Made by a program: the position numbers and the translations under genes. Positions 12,559 to 21,043 of a stretch of DNA of 64,000 bases are shown here, in pieces. Below the pieces are notes generated by a model. It was not told the DNA's origin and did no database searches. It saw nothing but the letters and a program-made list of their open reading frames with translations. The DNA is from Candidatus Latescibacterota bacterium (GTDB taxonomy: Bacteria; Latescibacterota; UBA2968; UBA8231), in the NCBI GenBank assembly GCA_965203175.1, contig OZ241867.1, positions 4,352,001 to 4,416,000 on the forward strand, in the 5' to 3' direction. The stretch's first letter is position 1. Each line of letters opens with the position of its first letter.

Positions 12559-14001
12559 TTAAATACCCACGCGGTTTTCATAGGCCAAGGGTCGTCCCTC
12601 GGCATCGAGTAAGGGCTGTGGTGGGGCCTTCTTTTGGGTTAGCAAGCTGACGATTACCAAGGAGAGGGCGGAAAAGGGCACGGCCAAAAGGTCGGCTGGC
12701 AAATCCGAGGAGAGCACCCTCAGTACCTGCCAGGCGCACAGGCCTACCCCTATGGAGGCCAAGGCCCCGGGGCCATTACTCTTGGACCACCACAAGCCAG
12801 CGGTTAGCGGGACGAACAGCGAGGCGAGGAGTACGGACCAAGAATCGACCATCAAATCGTACACCGAAGCAGTCCGGAGGGCCAATAGCAGAGATAGCGC
12901 GCCCAATAGGAGGACGGACAAGCGCGTCACGCGCAGCGACGCCCGCTCTTCGGCATCGGGTTTGAAGTAGCGCAGGAGATCCCAACCAATGACACTCGCT
13001 GGAGCGAGGAGGGCACTGTCGGCGCTGGACAGGATAGCCGAGACGAGGGCACCCATAAAGAGGATTAAGGCTATATCTGGAAGGTATTTTAGGGCGAGGG
13101 ACATCATAACTAGGTCGGGATCGGCCAGATCCGGAAGGATGACCGCACCCGCCATGCCGAGAAAAACGGGCAATAGCCCAACCGTTATATAAAGCAGCCC
13201 AGCGAGGTAAGCGCTGCGATAAGCGACCTTTTCGTCGCGGCTTGAAAGACAGCGCTGGATTAGGTCTTGGCCCGCTAGGCTGCCGAGTCCGATGACTAGC
13301 CAGTCGCGTGCATAGGCCAACCAACTGGCCGCGTCGCCGCGGGGGTAGAAATCGAAGCGGGAGGCCGGAATTTGGGCGACGAGGGCCTTCCAGCCGCCCA
13401 TGTCGCCGAGGAGGATCGGCGTCAAAATAAGCAGCCCGAGCACGAGGACGGTCACTTGGACGAAATCGGTTAGCGTGACGGCCCACATACCGCCGGCCCA
13501 AGTGTAGATCAGCACGATGACTGCGGCTGCGCAGATGCCGACAGTGGGATCGATGCCGGTCAGGATCTGCAGGATCCGTCCAAAGGCCACCAAGAGCGAG
13601 CCGGTCCAGCCGACATAGGCGGGAATGGTGCAAAGGCTCGCCAGCAGGCCCGCCCGAGGGCCGAAGCGGCGGCTAAAAAAAGATGCGATCGTCATCAAGC
13701 CCATGCGCCGCATCAACCGCACGTAAAAGAGGCCAGCGATGAACAGGCACAAAGCCGCGCCAAAAGGGTCGGCAATGACCGCGAGGATACCGCCCTTGTA
13801 TGCAGCACTCGCAGCGCCAATGCAGATTCCACCGCCAAACCACGTCGCGGCGAGGGTCGCGGTGCAGAGTAACAGAGGCAGGCGTTGACCGGCGAGGATG
13901 AAGTCAGTCGAGTTGTGGACTCGGCGACCAGCGTATAGGCCAACGCCGAGCATCACCAAGAGATAGACACCCAAGCCGATCAAGACCAATGGATTGGCCA
14001 T
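12559..14001 (-). CDS. Sodium:solute symporter (SSS; choline-transporter-like)
   Basis: About 13 TM helices; ATWFGGG, GGMWAVTLTD, QRCLSSR, SAILSSADS. Confidence 0.88.
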   Translation of the reverse strand: MANPLVLIGLGVYLLVMLGVGLYAGRRVHNSTDFILAGQRLPLLLCTATLAATWFGGGICIGAASAAYKGGILAVIADPFGAALCLFIAGLFYVRLMRRMGLMTIASFFSRRFGPRAGLLASLCTIPAYVGWTGSLLVAFGRILQILTGIDPTVGICAAAVIVLIYTWAGGMWAVTLTDFVQVTVLVLGLLILTPILLGDMGGWKALVAQIPASRFDFYPRGDAASWLAYARDWLVIGLGSLAGQDLIQRCLSSRDEKVAYRSAYLAGLLYITVGLLPVFLGMAGAVILPDLADPDLVMMSLALKYLPDIALILFMGALVSAILSSADSALLAPASVIGWDLLRYFKPDAEERASLRVTRLSVLLLGALSLLLALRTASVYDLMVDSWSVLLASLFVPLTAGLWWSKSNGPGALASIGVGLCAWQVLRVLSSDLPADLLAVPFSALSLVIVSLLTQKKAPPQPLLDAEGRPLAYENRVGI

Positions 14002-14040
14002 TGCAAGATCCTTTTTTAAGATTTGTTATAATAACTAAAG

Positions 14041-14087
14041 GAGTGAAAATGGCCAATGACGCCAGCCAAGTGGCGAATATGGCCATT
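14041..14087 (+). promoter_or_regulatory. Putative enhancer (UAS) pair for a sigma54 activator
   Basis: GAAWATGGCCAWT repeated at 30-bp spacing (14045 and 14075); second copy lies within TGGC-N7-GCCA; about 80-120 bp upstream of the -24 box. Confidence 0.5.
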
Positions 14088-14162
14088 AAAAAGTAATAAT
14101 TTGATCTATATTTTTCCTGTAATATATTGGGCTATAATCAGTTATGGATATGACAATGCTTT

Positions 14163-14178
14163 TGGCATGGTCCTTGCA
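14163..14178 (+). promoter_or_regulatory. sigma54 (-24/-12) promoter of pspA operon
   Basis: TGGCAT-GGTCC-TTGCA matches TGGCAC-N5-TTGCW with exact GG/GC spacing; preceded by AT-rich tract. Confidence 0.85.
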
Positions 14179-14227
14179 GGTTAGAAACAACGCATGATAA
14201 GCTTCACTCAATCAAGGAAGGTGTGCG

Positions 14228-14902
14228 ATGGCTAAGGGAGCCTTTTCGAGGATAAGCGATATCCTCAAGTCCAATATTAACGAGATGCTCGACCGGGCCG
14301 AAGAGCCAGACAAGATGATCCGCCAGATGGTGCGGGACATGGAAGAGGCAGTAGGCAAGGCCACGGCCTCGGTAGGGACTGCTGTGGCCAACCACAAGCG
14401 GCTCGAGCGCCAGTTCAACGACAAGCAAAGCCAGGTCGCCGAATGGCAGGGCAAGGCCGAACGGGCGGTGGAAGCGGGTGAAGATGCGCTGGCGCGACGG
14501 GCGTTGGAGCGCAAGGCGGTGTTTGCCAAAGCTGCCGAGGATCTGGCTCCGGCTGTGGAGGAAAGTCGGCAGACGGCCGCGCAGTTGCGCGAGCAACTGC
14601 GCGAGCTGAAGACCAAGCTCGAAGAAGCACGGACCCGACAGGGCACGTTGATTGCTCGCCACCAAGCTGCCCAGGCCCGCAAGCGTCTGGCCCAGAGCAT
14701 TTCCGGGTTGGGTGAGGATGCCTTTTCCAGCTTTGAACGCTTTGAGCAGAAAGTCGAAGAGAGCGAGGCAGAGGCGGCCGCCCACACGGAGATTTCGGGC
14801 GAGATGGAAAACATTGAGAAAGAGATCCGCCAAATCGAAGTCGATCACAGCGTTGACGACGAATTGAAGGCCCTAAAGGACAAGATGAATAAAGACAAGT
14901 AA
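14228..14902 (+). CDS. pspA: PspA/IM30 family protein (bacterial ESCRT-III)
   Basis: FSRISDILKSNIN.MLDRAEEPDKM..Q; A..A...GEDALARRAL; FERFEQKV; C-terminal VDDELKALK. Confidence 0.95.
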   Translation: MAKGAFSRISDILKSNINEMLDRAEEPDKMIRQMVRDMEEAVGKATASVGTAVANHKRLERQFNDKQSQVAEWQGKAERAVEAGEDALARRALERKAVFAKAAEDLAPAVEESRQTAAQLREQLRELKTKLEEARTRQGTLIARHQAAQARKRLAQSISGLGEDAFSSFERFEQKVEESEAEAAAHTEISGEMENIEKEIRQIEVDHSVDDELKALKDKMNKDK

Positions 14903-14950
14903 TCCTTTGTTCCACAGCATGTTGTGTAATCTGCTGAATTCGAGGAACTA

Positions 14951-15475
14951 ATGGCTGTGACGATGAGACCGCCCGATGCGGCAAAAAGCGAGGTACGAAG
15001 TGCTATGGAAGGGGGATTCAAGCGCCTAGGCGCTCTTTTTCTCAAGGTAATGGCCGTGCCGATGGTGCCGATAGGGCTGGGGTTTATGCTCTACGGACTT
15101 TTCCAAATTCTCCATGCCGATGGCCCAGATTCCCATTTTGAGTTTTTCGCCGTTGGCGTCACTCAGACCATTTTCGGCAGCTTGCTCTGGGTGCTGGCCA
15201 AAAAGCTCGATGCGGCCGCGCATTTGGTGCGCTACCGACGGCAGCAGAACCGCGTGGTGCGGCTGGCCCAGAAGAGAAATGGCCGCCTGACGGTGACCGA
15301 AACGGCGGCCGATACCGGGCTGACGGTCGAGGAAGCCTCGGAGATTCTCAAGCGCTTGGCCGATGGGGGATTCGTCGAGGTCGAAATAACCGATTCGGGC
15401 CTGATCGTCTATCGCTTTCCAGAAGTGCTTTTCGCGCATGAGAAACACTGGAGCCAAGGCGTCGAAAGCGCCTGA
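14951..15475 (+). CDS. Two-TM membrane protein with C-terminal winged-helix domain
   Basis: Two hydrophobic segments, then GRLTVTETAADTGLTVEEASEILKRLADGGFVEVEITDSGLIVYRF wHTH pattern. Confidence 0.7.
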   Translation: MAVTMRPPDAAKSEVRSAMEGGFKRLGALFLKVMAVPMVPIGLGFMLYGLFQILHADGPDSHFEFFAVGVTQTIFGSLLWVLAKKLDAAAHLVRYRRQQNRVVRLAQKRNGRLTVTETAADTGLTVEEASEILKRLADGGFVEVEITDSGLIVYRFPEVLFAHEKHWSQGVESA

Positions 15476-15511
15476 TACAAACAGGCTATAGCTCGGACAG
15501 GGAGGGAGCAA

Positions 15512-15787
15512 ATGAGTGGGTTTTTACAGCTCGCCATTGGCGTATGTCTCATCATCCTGTGCAGTGGATTGGTCAATTGGGGCAACAAGTATTATTCGAG
15601 CCGCAAGCGACGAGACAAAAAAGCCAAAGAGGAAGAGGATTTGATCGTCAAGCGTCTAGAGCGAGTAGAGCAGCGGCTGACCGAGGTGCAGGACGTGATG
15701 ATCGCCCTCAGCGAGAAGATCGACTACATGGATGGAGTAGGGACTAAACCTAGATCACAAAAAGAGCAAATGGGAACGGAGAGCTGA
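15512..15787 (+). CDS. Small single-TM coiled-coil protein (PspB-like architecture)
   Basis: GGGAGGGAG RBS; N-terminal TM, basic linker, RLERVEQRLTEVQDVMIALSEKID. Confidence 0.75.
   Translation: MSGFLQLAIGVCLIILCSGLVNWGNKYYSSRKRRDKKAKEEEDLIVKRLERVEQRLTEVQDVMIALSEKIDYMDGVGTKPRSQKEQMGTES
15671..15736 (+). repeat. 66-bp direct repeat copy A
   Basis: 61/66 identical to 16073-16138. Confidence 0.9.
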
Positions 15788-15823
15788 CAGGAAGAGTTGA
15801 TTCCATAGATAAGGAGTTAAATC

Positions 15824-16186
15824 ATGGCCAAGAACAAGGAGAGCCTCCTCGGATTCTTAGGCTTTATCGTGTTATTTGTTGTTGTCTTTTTTTTATTTAC
15901 CAGCCATCCCTTGGGGCCTAGCTTTCCCTACATTCTGACGCCACTCTTGTTGGCTGTTGTGGCGATTTTCGGCATCGCTAAAGTTGCCGAATACCTCAAG
16001 CTCAAGGCGACTGTATCCGAGGACAAGGGCATTGAGCCTGATGAACTGCGGGAACGGCTAGCCGGAATGGAACAGCGGCTGACTGAGGTGCAGGACGTGA
16101 TGATCGCTCTCAGCGAAAAGATCGACCACATGGACGGAACAGGATCTAAGTCTTGGGAGCGCCAAGAACCGCGAGAGCAAGGCTAG
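15824..16186 (+). CDS. Small two-TM coiled-coil protein, paralogue of upstream gene
   Basis: AAGGAG RBS; two TMs; RLAGMEQRLTEVQDVMIALSEKID. Confidence 0.75.
   Translation: MAKNKESLLGFLGFIVLFVVVFFLFTSHPLGPSFPYILTPLLLAVVAIFGIAKVAEYLKLKATVSEDKGIEPDELRERLAGMEQRLTEVQDVMIALSEKIDHMDGTGSKSWERQEPREQG
16073..16138 (+). repeat. 66-bp direct repeat copy B
   Basis: 61/66 identical to 15671-15736. Confidence 0.9.
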
Positions 16187-16189
16187 GCC

Positions 16190-17545
16190 GTGAATTGGCT
16201 CGACCGCGCTGTAGAGGCTTGTGAAGGTGCGCGTTGGGCCGAGGCTCTGGACTGGTGCGAACGCGGCCTAACGCAGGAGCCCGACGACTTGGAACTCCAG
16301 CACCGCAAAGGGCTTTGCCTCTTGGAACTGGGGGACGAACAAGCGGCCATCGCCGCACTGGAAGCGACCGCGACGAGTGGTCATCTAGAAAGTCACTACC
16401 AACTCGGTTTGCTCGCAATGCGCCAAGGGCGGCGGAACGCCCGGTTCCGCGATCAGTCGCTAGCGCACTTCGAGGCCATTGTGCGCGCGACTGAGGAAGG
16501 GCGCGAATACCCTGCCCTCGACCGCGTCTTTTTCGCTCTTGGTAGCCAGTACAACGAAGATCCACAGCGCCGTGAGGAAGCCATCCGCGCGTTCCGCCAA
16601 GGGTTGGCGATCAACCCGCTTTCCGCGGCTGGCCACAACAGTTTGGGCCAGCTTTTGCTGCAAGGCGGCCAAGTGTTAGGGGCGATGGGGGAATTCAAAG
16701 TCGCCATCCAACTCGACCCTAAGCTCAGTCAGCCGTACGCGAATTTGGCTCGTTTGTTTTTTCGCCATGTAAAACCCCCTGAATTAGAACAAGAATACCA
16801 GCACATCTGCGAGGAATTCAAGCAAAGCGCTCCGCAGGTCCTCGCACGTCTGTCGCTGGAAATGGTCGAGTTGGGAAAGGAACAGGTGTACGAGGGGTTT
16901 TACACGAAAGGGCATCGCATCAAAAACCTGATGGGGATCATCGGCAGCCGCTTGCGGGGGCTAGGGCGCAAGGCCGAAGGAAAGCAGCAGGGGGAGTTGA
17001 ATCGCTTAGGGGGCGAATACGAGGCTCTGTACGACGAGTGGGTGGGGTTCTTGGAAGCGATGAAAACGGATAAAATCCATCCGGCGGTAATCGATCTCGG
17101 ACGCTTAGTGCGCCGGGTGACCGCCGGATTTGACCGCCAAATTTGGAAAGCCGCGATTCAGACGCGAGTTCAAGAGGGCTTACCGCGCGTGGAGGCCGAT
17201 GAGCGGATGCTGCGCGAGGCCATTACCAACCTCTGCCTCAACGCCTTGGAGATTCTCGAAGAAAACCACGGCGGCCGAGTGGTGTTGGGAGCTGGCTACG
17301 ACGAGGAGCAGTCGCTAGTCTTTATTGAGGTCGAGGACGATGGGCCAGGCATTGAGGAAGAGCATTTGGAATTGATATTTGAGCCTGGATTTACCACTAG
17401 GGAGCGGGGCAATGGCTATGGCTTGAGCATTGCGCGCCGCATTGTCCAAGCCCATCAAGGCGTGCTGCGAGTCAAGAGCAGAAAGGGACATGGAACTGTT
17501 TTTCGGCTCGATCTGCCGCTCAATTTCGCGGGCGGCGAGACCTAG
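16190..17545 (+). CDS. TPR-repeat sensor histidine kinase (no TM)
   Basis: N-terminal TPR repeats; H-box HRIKNLMG; N-box NLCLNA; G1 DDGPGI; F-box FEPGFTT; G2 GNGYGLSI. Confidence 0.88.
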   Translation: MNWLDRAVEACEGARWAEALDWCERGLTQEPDDLELQHRKGLCLLELGDEQAAIAALEATATSGHLESHYQLGLLAMRQGRRNARFRDQSLAHFEAIVRATEEGREYPALDRVFFALGSQYNEDPQRREEAIRAFRQGLAINPLSAAGHNSLGQLLLQGGQVLGAMGEFKVAIQLDPKLSQPYANLARLFFRHVKPPELEQEYQHICEEFKQSAPQVLARLSLEMVELGKEQVYEGFYTKGHRIKNLMGIIGSRLRGLGRKAEGKQQGELNRLGGEYEALYDEWVGFLEAMKTDKIHPAVIDLGRLVRRVTAGFDRQIWKAAIQTRVQEGLPRVEADERMLREAITNLCLNALEILEENHGGRVVLGAGYDEEQSLVFIEVEDDGPGIEEEHLELIFEPGFTTRERGNGYGLSIARRIVQAHQGVLRVKSRKGHGTVFRLDLPLNFAGGET

Positions 17546-17572
17546 CCTTTCAGTGATTGAACGAGGACGGGC

Positions 17573-18991
17573 ATGGCAGGCAAAAAACAGAAAGCTGTCT
17601 TAATCGCCGATGACCAGCAGGAGTTGCGCGAGATACTGGCGGAGAAACTGCGCAGCTTAGACAAGGAGGTCCTCTCGTTTTCCAATGGCCAGCGTTTGCT
17701 CGGGCATCTGGCTGCTAGGCCGACGGACGTCGAACTCGTGGTGCTAGACTTTGACTTTGGCGTTGGCCAGCCCAATGGCCTCGAAGTGCTGAAAGAGATC
17801 AAAAAGCAGTGGGCCGAGCTGCCGGTTATTATCCTCACGGGCAAGGGGAGCGTCGACTTAGCGGTCGAAGCGGTGCAGGCCGGAGCAGCGGATTTTATCG
17901 AGAAGGACTTATACGTAGAAGACAAGCTCGAAGTGGAGATGGAAAAGGTCGAGCGGATGTTGGCGGTATTGCGCGAAAACGCCCGCCTCAAGGCCGAAAA
18001 TGAGACCCTAGATCGCGATAACACCTTTTACCGGACCCAACTAGGCCAGCGCTATCAGGTCGTCAGCCGGAGTCCTCTGATTCAGAACCTACTCAAGCAA
18101 GTTGAACAGGTCTCCTCCATACCGCGGCCCGTGCTGATCTGCGGCGAGCGCGGCACTGGAAAGGAACTGATCGCCGCCGCCTTGCACTATGGGAGCAACC
18201 GCCGCGAGCGGGCCTTTGTCAAGCTGAACTGTGCAGCGCTGTCGGATACCCTACTCGAAAGCGAGTTGTTTGGCCACGAGAAAGGGGCCTTTACAGGCGC
18301 GACTGAAATGCGCCACGGCCGCTTTGAAGCCGCCGATGGCGGCACGCTCTTTCTCGATGAGATCGGCAATACTTCGCTGGACTTCCAAAAAAACGTATTG
18401 CGCGTCATAGAATACCAAGAATTTGAACGCACGGGTGGGACGCAGACGATCCACGTTGACGTGCGCGTCGTGGCGGCGACCAACGCGGATATAGAGCGAG
18501 AAATAGCCAGTGGACAATTCCGCGCCGACCTCTACGACCGTCTGCGGTTTAGCGTGCTCCAGCTACCGCCCTTGCGGGAGCGGCCCGAGGACATTCGGCC
18601 CCTGGTTACTTACTTTACTCAGCAGATATGTGACGAGGTACCTGCGATCGAACGACGTCCGTTCGCCGAAGACGTTTTGGCCACGCTAGAGACCTACGCT
18701 TGGCCGGGCAATGTGCGCGAACTCAAATTTGCTGTCGAGCGCGCCCTCTGCGTCGCGCAAGGGGACGAAGTGGGTGTGGAGGACTTGCCCCCGGAAGTGC
18801 TCGGCGACAGCGGCGTTGACCTTCCTGAGGGGGGCAGTTTCGACGAACAAGTCGAGCGCGTGGAACGAGGCTTGCTCGATGGCGCGCTCGCCCAAGCGGG
18901 CGGGCGGCAGAAAGACGCGGCCCAGCAATTGGGATTGACCTATGACCGCTTTCGACACCTACTCCGCAAATACCAAATCACCGCTAAATAA
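17573..18991 (+). CDS. sigma54-dependent response regulator (REC + PspF-like AAA+ + HTH)
   Basis: REC with ADD, LD, T, K; GERGTGKE, GAFTGA, FLDE, WPGNVREL; HTH QKDAAQQLGLTYDRFRHLLRKY. Confidence 0.92.
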   Translation: MAGKKQKAVLIADDQQELREILAEKLRSLDKEVLSFSNGQRLLGHLAARPTDVELVVLDFDFGVGQPNGLEVLKEIKKQWAELPVIILTGKGSVDLAVEAVQAGAADFIEKDLYVEDKLEVEMEKVERMLAVLRENARLKAENETLDRDNTFYRTQLGQRYQVVSRSPLIQNLLKQVEQVSSIPRPVLICGERGTGKELIAAALHYGSNRRERAFVKLNCAALSDTLLESELFGHEKGAFTGATEMRHGRFEAADGGTLFLDEIGNTSLDFQKNVLRVIEYQEFERTGGTQTIHVDVRVVAATNADIEREIASGQFRADLYDRLRFSVLQLPPLRERPEDIRPLVTYFTQQICDEVPAIERRPFAEDVLATLETYAWPGNVRELKFAVERALCVAQGDEVGVEDLPPEVLGDSGVDLPEGGSFDEQVERVERGLLDGALAQAGGRQKDAAQQLGLTYDRFRHLLRKYQITAK

Positions 18992-19018: not shown

Positions 19019-19046
19019 TTGACAGTGGGAAAGCGCCGGGTATATT
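19019..19046 (+). promoter_or_regulatory. Possible sigma70 promoter
   Basis: TTGACA-N16-TATATT. Confidence 0.5.
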
Positions 19047-19078: not shown

Positions 19079-19402
19079 ATGGAAAAAGTTTACAAAGTCG
19101 AGACTACCCTTTCCCACAGTTTGGCCGAACTCTATGCTGGCCTCGAAGAGGAGTTCGCCAATAAAAGCAGTATCCCCCTCTCGGACATGAACCGCACGTT
19201 GTTGCAAACGGGCTTGATCCACCACCTGACGATGATGAGCGGACTGGGGCTGATCGAGCCGGAGAAAGCCGAGCGGCTGCACGAGTTGATCGACCAAGTA
19301 GCAAAGGATACCATACTTTGGGACATCTTGCAGATGGTGCGGACCTACTGGCGGGATTGCGGGTCTGGTGGTCCGGGCAACTCCAGCGGTCTCAACGCCT
19401 GA
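19079..19402 (+). CDS. Hypothetical protein
   Basis: GAGAGG RBS, own promoter-like element, fills intergenic gap. Confidence 0.65.
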   Translation: MEKVYKVETTLSHSLAELYAGLEEEFANKSSIPLSDMNRTLLQTGLIHHLTMMSGLGLIEPEKAERLHELIDQVAKDTILWDILQMVRTYWRDCGSGGPGNSSGLNA

Positions 19403-19527: not shown

Positions 19528-19905
19528 ATGACCTCCTTTAGCGCAGCGGTTTTCGACCACTACCGGCATCCTCGCAACGCTGGGCAAATCGATGATGCCA
19601 ATGCCTCGGGGCAAGCCGAGAATCAGGCCTGCGGCGATGCGATGCAGCTTTTTGCCCGCGTCGAAGACGGCCGCATCGTTCGCGCTAGCTGTAAGACCTT
19701 TGGTTGCGCCCCCTCGGTCGCGGCTGGTTCGGTGCTCACCGAGTTGCTAGCAGACTTATTGTTGGCGGACGCAGCCCAGCTAAAGCCGGCAGCTATTGAG
19801 GAGGCACTAGGGGGACTACCGCCAATGAAGCGCCACGCTGCCCAACTAGCCGTTGACGCGACTCAAGCCTTAGTGAAAAACTACCAGGCCAGGACGGCCT
19901 CCTAA
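19528..19905 (+). CDS. IscU/NifU-N-like scaffold protein
   Basis: [22 protein letters not shown]; third Cys replaced (KRHAA). Confidence 0.85.
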
Positions 19906-19951
19906 CGCATTCACACTCTGCGTTTTAACCTCAAGCCGAAAGGATTGCACC

Positions 19952-20572
19952 ATGGCTCACTCTCTTCCCGATCTCCCCTATGCCTATGACGCGTTAGAAC
20001 CGATCATAGATGCCCGGACCATGGAGATTCACCACACTAAGCATCACAACACCTATGTGACCAGCCTCAACACCGCGCTCGAAGGGCACGACGACTTGGC
20101 TGCTAAAAGCGCCGAAGACCTCATCAGCGACCTCGACGCCGTCCCCGCGGACATCAGTACGGCGGTGCGCAACCACGGCGGCGGTCATGCCAACCATAGC
20201 CTATTTTGGCAGATCATGGCTCCAGCGGGAGAGCGCGGCGAGCCTTCGGCTGAGCTCATCGCCGCCGCCGAAGCCAAATTTGGCAGTCAAGACGCAGCCC
20301 GCGAAGCCTTCGTGGATGCCGCAACCAAGCGATTCGGCAGCGGCTGGGCTTGGGTCGTAGTCAAGGACGGCGAGCTCGACATTCTCAGCACCGCCAATCA
20401 GGATAATCCCCTAATGGACGGTAGCGGAGTTCCCATCCTCGGCATTGATGTTTGGGAACACGCCTATTATCTCAACTACCAAAACCGTCGGCCCGACTAC
20501 ATCGCCGCTTGGATTGAGACTGTCAACTGGAACGAAGTCAATCGCCGCTTTGCCGAGACGACGGGGAGTTAG
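19952..20572 (+). CDS. sodA: Superoxide dismutase (Mn-type signatures)
   Basis: [31 protein letters not shown]. Confidence 0.93.
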
Positions 20573-20575
20573 CAG

Positions 20576-21043
20576 ATGGCGATTCAAGTAGGAGATACAG
20601 CGCCCGCGTTCACTCTCAAGAATGCGGATATGGAGGACGTAAGCCTCGGGGATTTCGCCGGTAAGAACGTCGTCTTGCTCTTCGTGCCGCTGGCTTTCAC
20701 CGGCGTTTGTACGCAGGAGTTGTGCGAGATTTCCGCCGGCATCAACGCGTACCAAGAGCTCGATGCCCAGGTTTTGGGAATCAGCGTCGATAGTCCGTTT
20801 AGCCTCAGCGCTTGGGCCGAAAAGGAAGGTATTAAGATTCCACTGCTCAGCGATTTCAACAAGGAGGTATCCGCTGGGTACGGTGCCCAGCACGAAGACC
20901 TGTTGGGCTTTAAAGGCGTCGCCAAGCGCTCGGCCTTTGTCGTCGATGAGCAAGGTATCGTTCGCTACGCTTGGGTGTCCGACAATCCCAAGGTTCTGCC
21001 GGATTTTGCGGCCATTAGGGCTTGTTTGCAATCGCTCAACTGA
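20576..21043 (+). CDS. Peroxiredoxin (AhpC/TSA family)
   Basis: PLAFTGVCTQELC (PxxxTxxC), GISVDS, LLSDF, KRSAFVVD. Confidence 0.9.
   Translation: MAIQVGDTAPAFTLKNADMEDVSLGDFAGKNVVLLFVPLAFTGVCTQELCEISAGINAYQELDAQVLGISVDSPFSLSAWAEKEGIKIPLLSDFNKEVSAGYGAQHEDLLGFKGVAKRSAFVVDEQGIVRYAWVSDNPKVLPDFAAIRACLQSLN

Follow-up and report, generated by a model that had tools for sequence, protein, structure and literature searches.

Introduction

Among the regulatory systems closest to the one described here, the lia promoter of Bacillus subtilis uses the housekeeping sigma factor, and ZraS and AtoS of Escherichia coli are membrane kinases. In the Psp (phage-shock protein) system of enterobacteria, PspF is the standard example of enhancer-binding proteins without a sensory domain, and its regulation is exerted solely in trans, by PspA, its own target. 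PspF has been placed among the activators that lack a signal domain (PMC3162934), and two upstream activator sites and a role of IHF have been described for E. coli pspA (PMC3709507). We report here a six-gene operon at positions 14050-18991 of a 64,000-nucleotide stretch of DNA (the window) from a marine Candidatus Latescibacterota bacterium; the window corresponds to G000:C1:4352001-4416000 of a single-contig genome of 6.58 Mb (93% complete). Our analysis points to a sigma-54-dependent psp operon whose PspF-type activator is predicted to be the response regulator of a dedicated two-component system, a reading to which we give a probability of roughly 0.7.

Organization of the operon

The region consists of an enhancer, a sigma-54 promoter and six open reading frames (ORFs), all on the + strand and separated by intergenic gaps of 3-48 bp. 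The initial annotation, made from the letters of the window, had listed a sigma-54 promoter, pspA, a transmembrane (TM) protein with a winged helix-turn-helix (wHTH), two small membrane proteins, a TPR histidine kinase and an activator with a receiver (REC) and an AAA+ domain, co-oriented and close together, and all of these were found in place. It had overlooked the enhancer at 14050-14085, the cytoplasmic nature of the kinase and the PspF lineage of the activator. The features of the operon are as follows.

14050-14064, + strand: enhancer dyad 1, TGGCCAATGACGCCA, of the form TGGC-N7-GCCA (pattern search and alignment)
14071-14085, + strand: enhancer dyad 2, TGGCGAATATGGCCA, starting 21 bp after the start of dyad 1 (pattern search and alignment)
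14086-14162, + strand: A+T-rich spacer of ~77 bp from enhancer to promoter, its length conserved in close relatives
14163-14178, + strand: predicted sigma-54 promoter, TGGCATGGTCCTTGCA, with -24 GG and -12 GC elements in GG-N10-GC spacing (motif and conservation)
14228-14902, + strand: pspA, 224 aa, PspA/IM30 effector (PF04012, E 5.9e-48; score 163.8 bits, cut-off 33.9)
14951-15475, + strand: protein with two TM segments (2TM) and a cytoplasmic winged-helix domain, 174 aa (two TM-like segments, AlphaFold2 model)
15512-15787, + strand: small membrane protein 1, 91 aa (one TM-like segment, then a cytoplasmic helix motif)
15824-16186, + strand: small membrane protein 2, 120 aa (two TM-like segments and the same C-terminal motif)
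16190-17545, + strand: soluble histidine kinase, 451 aa (TPR at ~1-200, helical linker with H-box His242, HATPase_c at 337-444, E 1.3e-23)
17573-18991, + strand: REC-PspF activator (receiver 9-114 with Asp59, PspF-clade AAA+ domain 164-411 with GAFTGA, Fis-type helix-turn-helix (HTH) 427-458)

Within the six-gene block, no terminator-like site was found at any gene boundary and no strong sigma-70-like promoter inside. A TTGACA-16-TATATT site follows the last stop codon of the operon, at 19019-19046. The PspA protein scored 166 bits against TIGR02977, under the equivalog cut-off of 243, and was 60-100% identical across the related loci.

The activator combines a PspF-lineage output with a receiver

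The activator matched Response_reg (PF00072, E 2e-19), Sigma54_activat (E 2.5e-64) and HTH_8 of Pfam. BLASTP aligned its residues 173-469 with residues 18-325 of E. coli PspF (MG1655) at 49% identity (E 2e-92), and the alignment extended through the Fis-type HTH to the final residues of both proteins. In the AAA+ domain, PspF was 55.9% identical, compared with at most 51% for the other 25 activators of the same genome and 47-49% for AtoC, FhlA, ZraR, NtrC and NorR of E. coli. A maximum-likelihood tree of 35 AAA+ domains (LG+C20+F+G4), which comprised six E. coli activators, 25 from this genome and four orthologues, joined E. coli PspF and the four orthologues in a clade apart from the other 30 activators, with support of 100/99. 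The PspF-type output that the initial annotation had put forward was upheld by this tree and by the identity through the HTH, the activator going with PspF and not with NtrC. The best NCBIfam model was likewise TIGR02974 (pspF), PspF matched the activator among the solved structures with 254 bits over 222 residues, and the GAFTGA loop was present in alignment with PspF and NtrC1.

An acidic pair, a phospho-accepting Asp, a Thr and a Lys form the conserved set of receiver residues. In the alignment with NtrC1, all of them were in place in the activator (Asp13/Asp14, Asp59, Thr89 and Lys111), and the same residues occurred in the orthologue of family f2, one of the two other families in which the operon was followed. 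Each of the 120 best relatives in the database, which reach down to 56% identity, has a receiver domain; one of them is named PspF by its source.

The surface of PspF that binds PspA, whose exact residues we take to be Trp56 and its neighbours, is largely missing from the activator. Trp56 is replaced by Arg211 and Leu52 by Gly207, only Tyr51 is kept (as Tyr206), and the f2 orthologue has no Trp at the position of Trp56 either. In E. coli, Trp56 of PspF is the PspA contact (PMC6003685), and the hydrophobic patch has been described as well (PMC3791423). Judged by alignment, the activator is a PspF orthologue with an intact receiver and without the Trp56 patch for PspA binding.

Promoter and enhancer

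The pattern TGGCAY-N5-TTGCW matched the window only once, at TGGCATGGTCCTTGCA, with 0.15 matches expected and with one match yielded by 15 of 100 shuffles; the 6.58-Mb genome held 25 matches, this one included. The promoter motif is not significant by such single-match statistics alone, and its weight as a predicted promoter comes from conservation. A regular expression found the motif 63-74 bp upstream of the start of pspA in 31/32 sequences; the remaining locus (L051) has GGGCA with the GG-N10-GC spacing intact. With a looser expression, it was also present in 5/5 loci of two other families. The genome has one copy of rpoN. From the motif, transcription would be expected to start near 14189. 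A weak sigma-70-like site (9/12 positions) lies at 14101-14128.

The tandem-dyad pattern of the enhancer gave one match in the window (14050-14085) and none in 100 shuffles. With a relaxed expression, it occurred at four places in the genome, only two of which had intact TGGC/GCCA arms, and both of these stood upstream of a pspA. When the 32 upstream regions were aligned, the dyads showed conserved arms and variable inner bases, a pattern that extended to the most distant loci (L051, L054 and L055). Family f2 showed the same two-dyad layout, the second dyad being degenerate in some loci; the single-dyad expression matched 4/5 loci. The A+T-rich spacer at 14086-14162 may be a bend site of the IHF type.

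A second pspA operon carries the same control elements

The twin of the intact-armed enhancer was located at G000:C1:3688254-3688287, with a GG-N10-GC site, CGGTACGCCCTTTGCT (CGGTAC-N5-TTGCT), 76 bp downstream. The operon behind it (G000:C1:3688254-3689675; L003 1114-2535) encodes a 65-aa ORF, a second PspA (PspA2, 41% identical to the PspA of the window) and a 122-aa hydrophobic protein; no Pfam family was found for the two ORFs flanking PspA2. Enhancer and promoter, 76-79 bp apart, were found in 18/23 loci of relatives, and the expression missed L144 (a short locus), L159, L161, L163 and L164. At an E-value of 1e-40, PspA2 was detected in 22/24 genomes of the genus and in 0/16 genomes of three other families. 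Since an intact-armed enhancer and a promoter stand before both, the predicted regulon likely consists of the two pspA operons. At the second pspA locus of a more distant congener (L165, G016:C25, ~891-1420, - strand), two tandem enhancer-promoter sets lie ~420 bp apart.

A third PspA paralogue (G000:C1:4458099-4459085, a 328-aa frame) follows a gene for a group II intron reverse transcriptase/maturase. Downstream of it are an amine oxidase, a protein with a spermine synthase domain, an ORF without Pfam family and a DUF350 protein (G000:C1:4456082-4464388; L200 4083-12389). There is no enhancer copy at this place, and the paralogue was set aside as a separate context. PspA contexts with spermine synthase are listed in PMC11237479.

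The kinase and its linkage to pspA

The N-terminal 200 residues of the kinase matched several TPR families, and its best NCBIfam matches were AtoS and ZraS, in the catalytic half only. The H-box, Y-[TS]-x-G-H-[RQ]-[IL]-K-N with His242, was invariant in 12 sequences, down to 45% identity; together with the conserved receiver residues, it agrees with the two-component input predicted by the initial annotation. No TM-like segment was detected in the kinase or in the activator. The predicted TPR histidine kinase is no membrane sensor, since the protein without TM-like segments would be soluble and cytoplasmic. It was single-copy in every genome carrying it. Among the matches listed in a scan with the kinase alignment, four loci carried Latescibacterota or Gemmatimonadota labels and the others were generic matches to the catalytic domain, a scan that says nothing on absence elsewhere.

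Of the 32 loci found through the 2TM winged-helix protein, all contained the kinase, 31 contained pspA and 30 the activator; wherever a gene was missing, the locus ran into a contig end. The gene order was kept in 5/5 loci of families f2 and f4, with 3.3-4.9 kb inserted, and so in all 37 related loci examined (32 + 5). The TPR-DHp part of the kinase was present in 85 of 151 sampled genomes of the phylum, G000 included: 39/63 in family f1, 27/30 in f2, 18/19 in f4 and 0/38 in eleven other families. In 81 of the 85 kinase-bearing genomes, pspA lay 1.4-7.2 kb from the kinase on the same contig; the remaining four had the hits on different contigs (2) or no pspA hit (2). The synteny of kinase and regulator with pspA in relatives, on which the initial annotation had staked its proposal, is therefore borne out. 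As far as sampled, the system is confined to one class. Close relatives have been deposited as metagenome-assembled genomes of Candidatus Latescibacterota, a few carrying Gemmatimonadota labels, and by source records the related DNA comes mainly from sponge, coral and marine samples.

The inserted DNA in the f2 locus L056 (4893-7784, between the small proteins and the kinase) encodes, besides further ORFs, an ECF sigma factor, a membrane protein of 230 aa that had no Pfam match and a 534-aa Band 7/SPFH protein. The insertion is a further link of the operon with membrane organization. The name NfeD, given by eye to the 230-aa protein, was dropped for want of a Pfam match.

Proposed mechanism

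In the proposed mechanism, the kinase would autophosphorylate on His242 and pass the phosphate to Asp59 of REC-PspF. The phosphorylated activator would assemble on the two dyads of the TGGCG-N5-CGCCA type ~80 bp upstream of the -24/-12 site and open the sigma-54 promoter complex. The output would be more PspA, membrane partners, kinase and activator, which amounts to positive autoregulation because the kinase and activator genes would be in the same transcript. As the kinase is cytoplasmic, its TPR domain would have to receive the input by contact with another protein. Free PspA may keep the kinase inactive by binding to this domain, and membrane damage may then draw PspA to the membrane, aided by the 2TM winged-helix protein and the small proteins, so that the kinase is released. 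The negative feedback of PspA would be retained, with the kinase as its route in place of the AAA+ domain that serves in E. coli. This PspA-TPR step of the model is tentative, its odds lying well below even. We regard as doubtful the stronger form, in which PspA, a protein of the ESCRT-III type, is itself the ligand of the sensor kinase and a phosphorelay replaces the direct PspA-PspF clamp of enterobacteria.

A complex prediction was made with the TPR domain (residues 1-232) as partner of PspA and the winged-helix domain (residues 92-174). The score was 0.60 (runs of 0.60, 0.58 and 0.60), and the best of three controls scored 0.00; replacing PspA alone, with the winged helix kept, likewise gave 0.00. 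At least 70% of the contacts agreed between runs, and the partner had a predicted local distance difference test (pLDDT) score of at least 84. The verdict of the tool was 'weak support', a mark reached in its calibration by 58/80 solved complexes and 2/110 mismatched pairs; scores up to 0.60 were found for only 7/80 solved complexes and for both mismatches that passed. On this prediction we hypothesize that PspA would be the better candidate for the TPR ligand.

Contigs from RNA libraries of relatives at 90-95% identity, from four studies, fell on the operon. One contig of 3823 nt covers 14313-15724 and 15980-18207 and bridges pspA to the activator gene; its part for small protein 2 is replaced by other letters, which fits the copy-number variation of the small proteins.

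Several points weigh against the reading of the locus as a psp operon under two-component control. The system is known from genes alone, and the organism is uncultured. The activator scored 363 bits against an equivalog cut-off of 443.55 for TIGR02974, and the sampling of the tree that gave the PspF clade was thin (35 rows). No Pfam HisKA match was found in the kinase, and only the conserved H-box points to phosphotransfer. In two other lineages of the phylum (G048 and G084), PspA orthologues of 55-62% identity occur alone, with none of the other five genes nearby, and pspA therefore does not need this regulator. When up to two mismatches were allowed, 24 kb of E. coli DNA contained the enhancer dyad 45 times against 20 expected, and because it is so common there, the likeness of the enhancer to that of E. 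coli is kept as a lead only. The PspA-TPR prediction is weak by the calibration of the tool; it differed from the calibration runs in using three chains and alignments that we had made ourselves, and no list of contacts came with it. The RNA evidence consists of contigs from libraries that can contain DNA, and one contig (run X1) crosses the promoter region; such contigs cannot prove transcription, nor show its starts, strand or level. The listed contigs of run X2 leave 14010-14312 uncovered, a gap that carries no weight as a finding.

Membrane proteins and alternative inputs

The first alternative keeps the same wiring, but lets the TPR domain read the membrane proteins: the winged-helix domain or the helix of a small protein would dock on it upon perturbation, like the PspB/PspC sensors in E. 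coli. TPR domains commonly bind short helices or tails. The 2TM winged-helix gene was conserved in every locus examined, the small proteins share a strongly conserved cytoplasmic motif, and all these domains face the cytoplasm, the predicted site of the soluble kinase. The two small proteins are paralogues with the common C-terminal helix motif RL-x3-E-x-RLT[DE][VI]QDVMIALSEK; no Pfam or NCBIfam family was found for them. A scan of 36 intervals gave, however, 0 to 3 copies of their gene per interval, with none found in L054. The fall of the predicted-complex score from 0.60 to 0.00 on replacing PspA alone speaks, weakly, against the membrane proteins as the input. So do the relatives of the 2TM protein in a genome of Polyangium sp., where neither of the two family members shares a contig with either of the two PspA genes, which indicates that the family is not a dedicated Psp part; from this and from the searches with a distant family member, the idea of the winged-helix family as a general PspA partner was dropped. 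We consider an input from the membrane proteins improbable on balance, with some weight left to it.

A direct likeness of these proteins to PspB and PspC was also sought. Models of PspB (PF06667) and PspC (PF04024) had no match in the 93% complete genome, in agreement with the lack of a recognizable PspC reported in the initial annotation. With hhalign, the small proteins matched E. coli PspB with a probability of 4.5% and the 2TM protein matched PspC with 0.2%, values obtained with single-sequence templates of low power. Homology to PspB or PspC was thus detected neither by the models nor by hhalign and was rejected; the small membrane proteins are present as first annotated, and their likeness to PspB is one of layout only.

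The second alternative is dual control, in which PspA would inhibit the AAA+ domain of the activator directly as in E. coli and phosphorylation would be a second, independent input. The AAA+ domain is of the PspF lineage, and Tyr206 matches Tyr51 of PspF; the exchanges at Trp56 and Leu52 and the lack of the Trp in the f2 orthologue argue against a direct clamp and leave dual control unlikely.

The third alternative concerns the 174-aa protein, which may be a membrane-tethered DNA-binding regulator of the operon, for example a repressor released or sequestered on stress. In its AlphaFold2 model (mean pLDDT 76.3), helices at 8-55 and 59-108 are followed by strand, helix, helix, strand and strand; they form a TM hairpin whose second helix continues into the winged helix, and the C-terminal helix is of low confidence. 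The domain after the hairpin has three helices and three strands, and it may or may not correspond to the PspAA domain (Ravi et al. 2024). The model and the two TM-like segments support the TM-wHTH protein of the initial annotation in its architecture, but DNA binding by it is improbable. Weak wHTH matches, to HTH_24 (E 1.6e-3) and, by Foldseek, to folds of the ArsR/MarR/IclR kind (E 3e-3 to 2e-2), favour a tethered regulator. All Pfam matches of the protein were nonetheless under the cut-offs, and none of the Foldseek matches of the model reached E 1e-3; those obtained were to generic winged helices, the strongest at E 3e-3. The core of the winged helix has a net charge of -5 and the helix in the recognition position of -2, and the juxtamembrane stretch before the core has +7; the acidic core is probably not a DNA binder. 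Elsewhere, the domain is fused to TMEM43, RDD or cyclase modules. In the upstream alignment, no conserved DNA element besides the activator dyads stood out, and a tethered regulator of the operon appears very unlikely.

The 2TM winged-helix protein belongs to a large family. A profile of 13 orthologues matched 1990 clusters at E 1e-3 among 1.84 billion representatives, and no Pfam model covers the family; most of its members have ~150 aa and the same layout. The clusters of look-alikes in the Atlas are labelled Actinomycetota and Myxococcota, and are leads only. A distant member (P0021) had no match in genome contigs and, in metagenome contigs, only one contig of 2.6 kb. On that contig (L062 889-2251), two tandem winged-helix paralogues follow a small membrane protein, without pspA. 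In a bolder and weak side reading, the membrane-anchored winged helix next to pspA might act like the winged-helix subunits of ESCRT-II that seed ESCRT-III. The only support for it is a weak fold match to human ESCRT-II (3cuq_A, root mean square deviation 1.6 over 60 columns, E 7e-3).

That the kinase and the activator stand beside pspA by chance and regulate other genes can be dismissed as highly improbable: two-component genes are common operon neighbours and the genome has 26 sigma-54 activators, but the adjacency is kept in 81/85 genomes across three families, the gaps are of 3-48 bp with no terminator-like site at gene boundaries, the sole intact-armed enhancers in the genome are those of the two pspA loci, and the activator is of PspF lineage.

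Surroundings of the operon and other sigma-54 activators

The gene upstream of the operon is divergent from it.

12559-14001, - strand: sodium:solute symporter gene (PF00474)

Downstream, a 107-aa ORF without family (19079-19402) lies between the operon and a small oxidative-stress cluster at 19528-21043, in which genes for a NifU_N/IscU-like protein, an Fe/Mn superoxide dismutase and an AhpC/TSA peroxiredoxin stand in a row. Farther away, the segment 44001-46000 has a G+C content of 0.433, compared with 0.53-0.63 in the rest of the window, and may be foreign or RNA-coding DNA.

The genome encodes 26 sigma-54 activators above the Pfam cut-off. Twelve of them fall in one group of the tree (11 rows at 98/92 and related rows), some nearly identical (L171-L176, L181, L182, L184, L185, L190 and L191). 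In most activators of this group, the AAA+ domain is preceded by a long N-terminal part (~495 residues), and the group represents a large expansion of paralogues.

Comparison with known systems

Neither a receiver-bearing PspF nor a TPR kinase with pspA is described in the accessible sections of PMC9239133, PMC11237479, PMC3041696, PMC3162934 and PMC4641369; such neighbourhoods may be held in the supplementary tables of the surveys. The suggestion of the initial annotation that the architecture is uncatalogued stands to the same extent for the Psp surveys PMC9239133 and PMC11237479, their supplementary tables aside. Literature searches returned no paper on such a system and none pairing 'Latescibacter' with 'PspA'.

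A natural PspF orthologue that possesses a receiver, is paired with its own kinase and lacks the PspA patch would place the same output module under quite different input, and the system offers a comparison for how the feedback of PspA is sensed. Should REC-PspF have come first, the PspF of enterobacteria would descend from it by loss of the receiver, and the site at which PspA binds would have shifted from the kinase to the AAA+ domain. The operon also provides a first way into the function of an envelope-stress circuit of Latescibacterota, and it brings in a winged-helix family of 1990 clusters and a small-protein motif that have no annotation at all. The system looks portable to a laboratory strain because E. 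coli has sigma-54 and a related PspF.

The operon resembles the ZraPSR and AtoSC systems of E. coli (NtrB/NtrC-type) in having a kinase and a REC-AAA+-HTH regulator for a sigma-54 promoter. Unlike in those systems, the activator groups with PspF and not with ZraR, AtoC or NtrC, and the output is PspA. With LiaIH-LiaFSR of B. subtilis it shares the principle of a dedicated two-component system, which there induces a homologue of PspA together with a small membrane anchor (PMC9239133, PMC11237479). LiaS is, however, a membrane kinase and LiaR has a receiver with an HTH output (PMC11237479), whereas an AAA+ activator is present here; no Pfam match to the LiaF/Toastrack or LiaI-LiaF-TM domains was found in the six operon proteins. 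The phage-shock operon of Desulfovibrio vulgaris, dependent on sigma-54 and PspF (DVU2989), is a further example outside Gammaproteobacteria (PMC4641369). DVU2989 differs in being a single-component regulator without N-terminal domain (PMC4641369).

The operon also resembles the Psp system of the enterobacteria E. coli and Yersinia. In both, the PspA effector stands behind a sigma-54 promoter preceded by two upstream activator sites and an A+T-rich stretch, the AAA+ and HTH domains of the activator are orthologous to PspF, small membrane proteins are encoded just after pspA, and the regulon includes a second promoter, that of pspG in E. coli (PMC3709507) and that of the second pspA operon here. 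The E. coli enhancer TGATG-N5-CGCCA-N5-TAGTG-N5-CGCTA may share the 5-5-5 layout found here, which is our own reading and not statistically firm. There are also differences. No PspB, PspC, PspD or PspE was found here, and the regulator genes are at the end of the operon and not divergent from it. PspF of enterobacteria lacks an N-terminal domain, and PspA inhibits it by way of Trp56, whereas the activator of the present operon has an intact receiver and is accompanied by a soluble TPR kinase. By its predicted domains, the system is a new variant of the Psp response that combines a PspF-type sigma-54 output with a two-component input, a rewiring of a known system at the level of domains.

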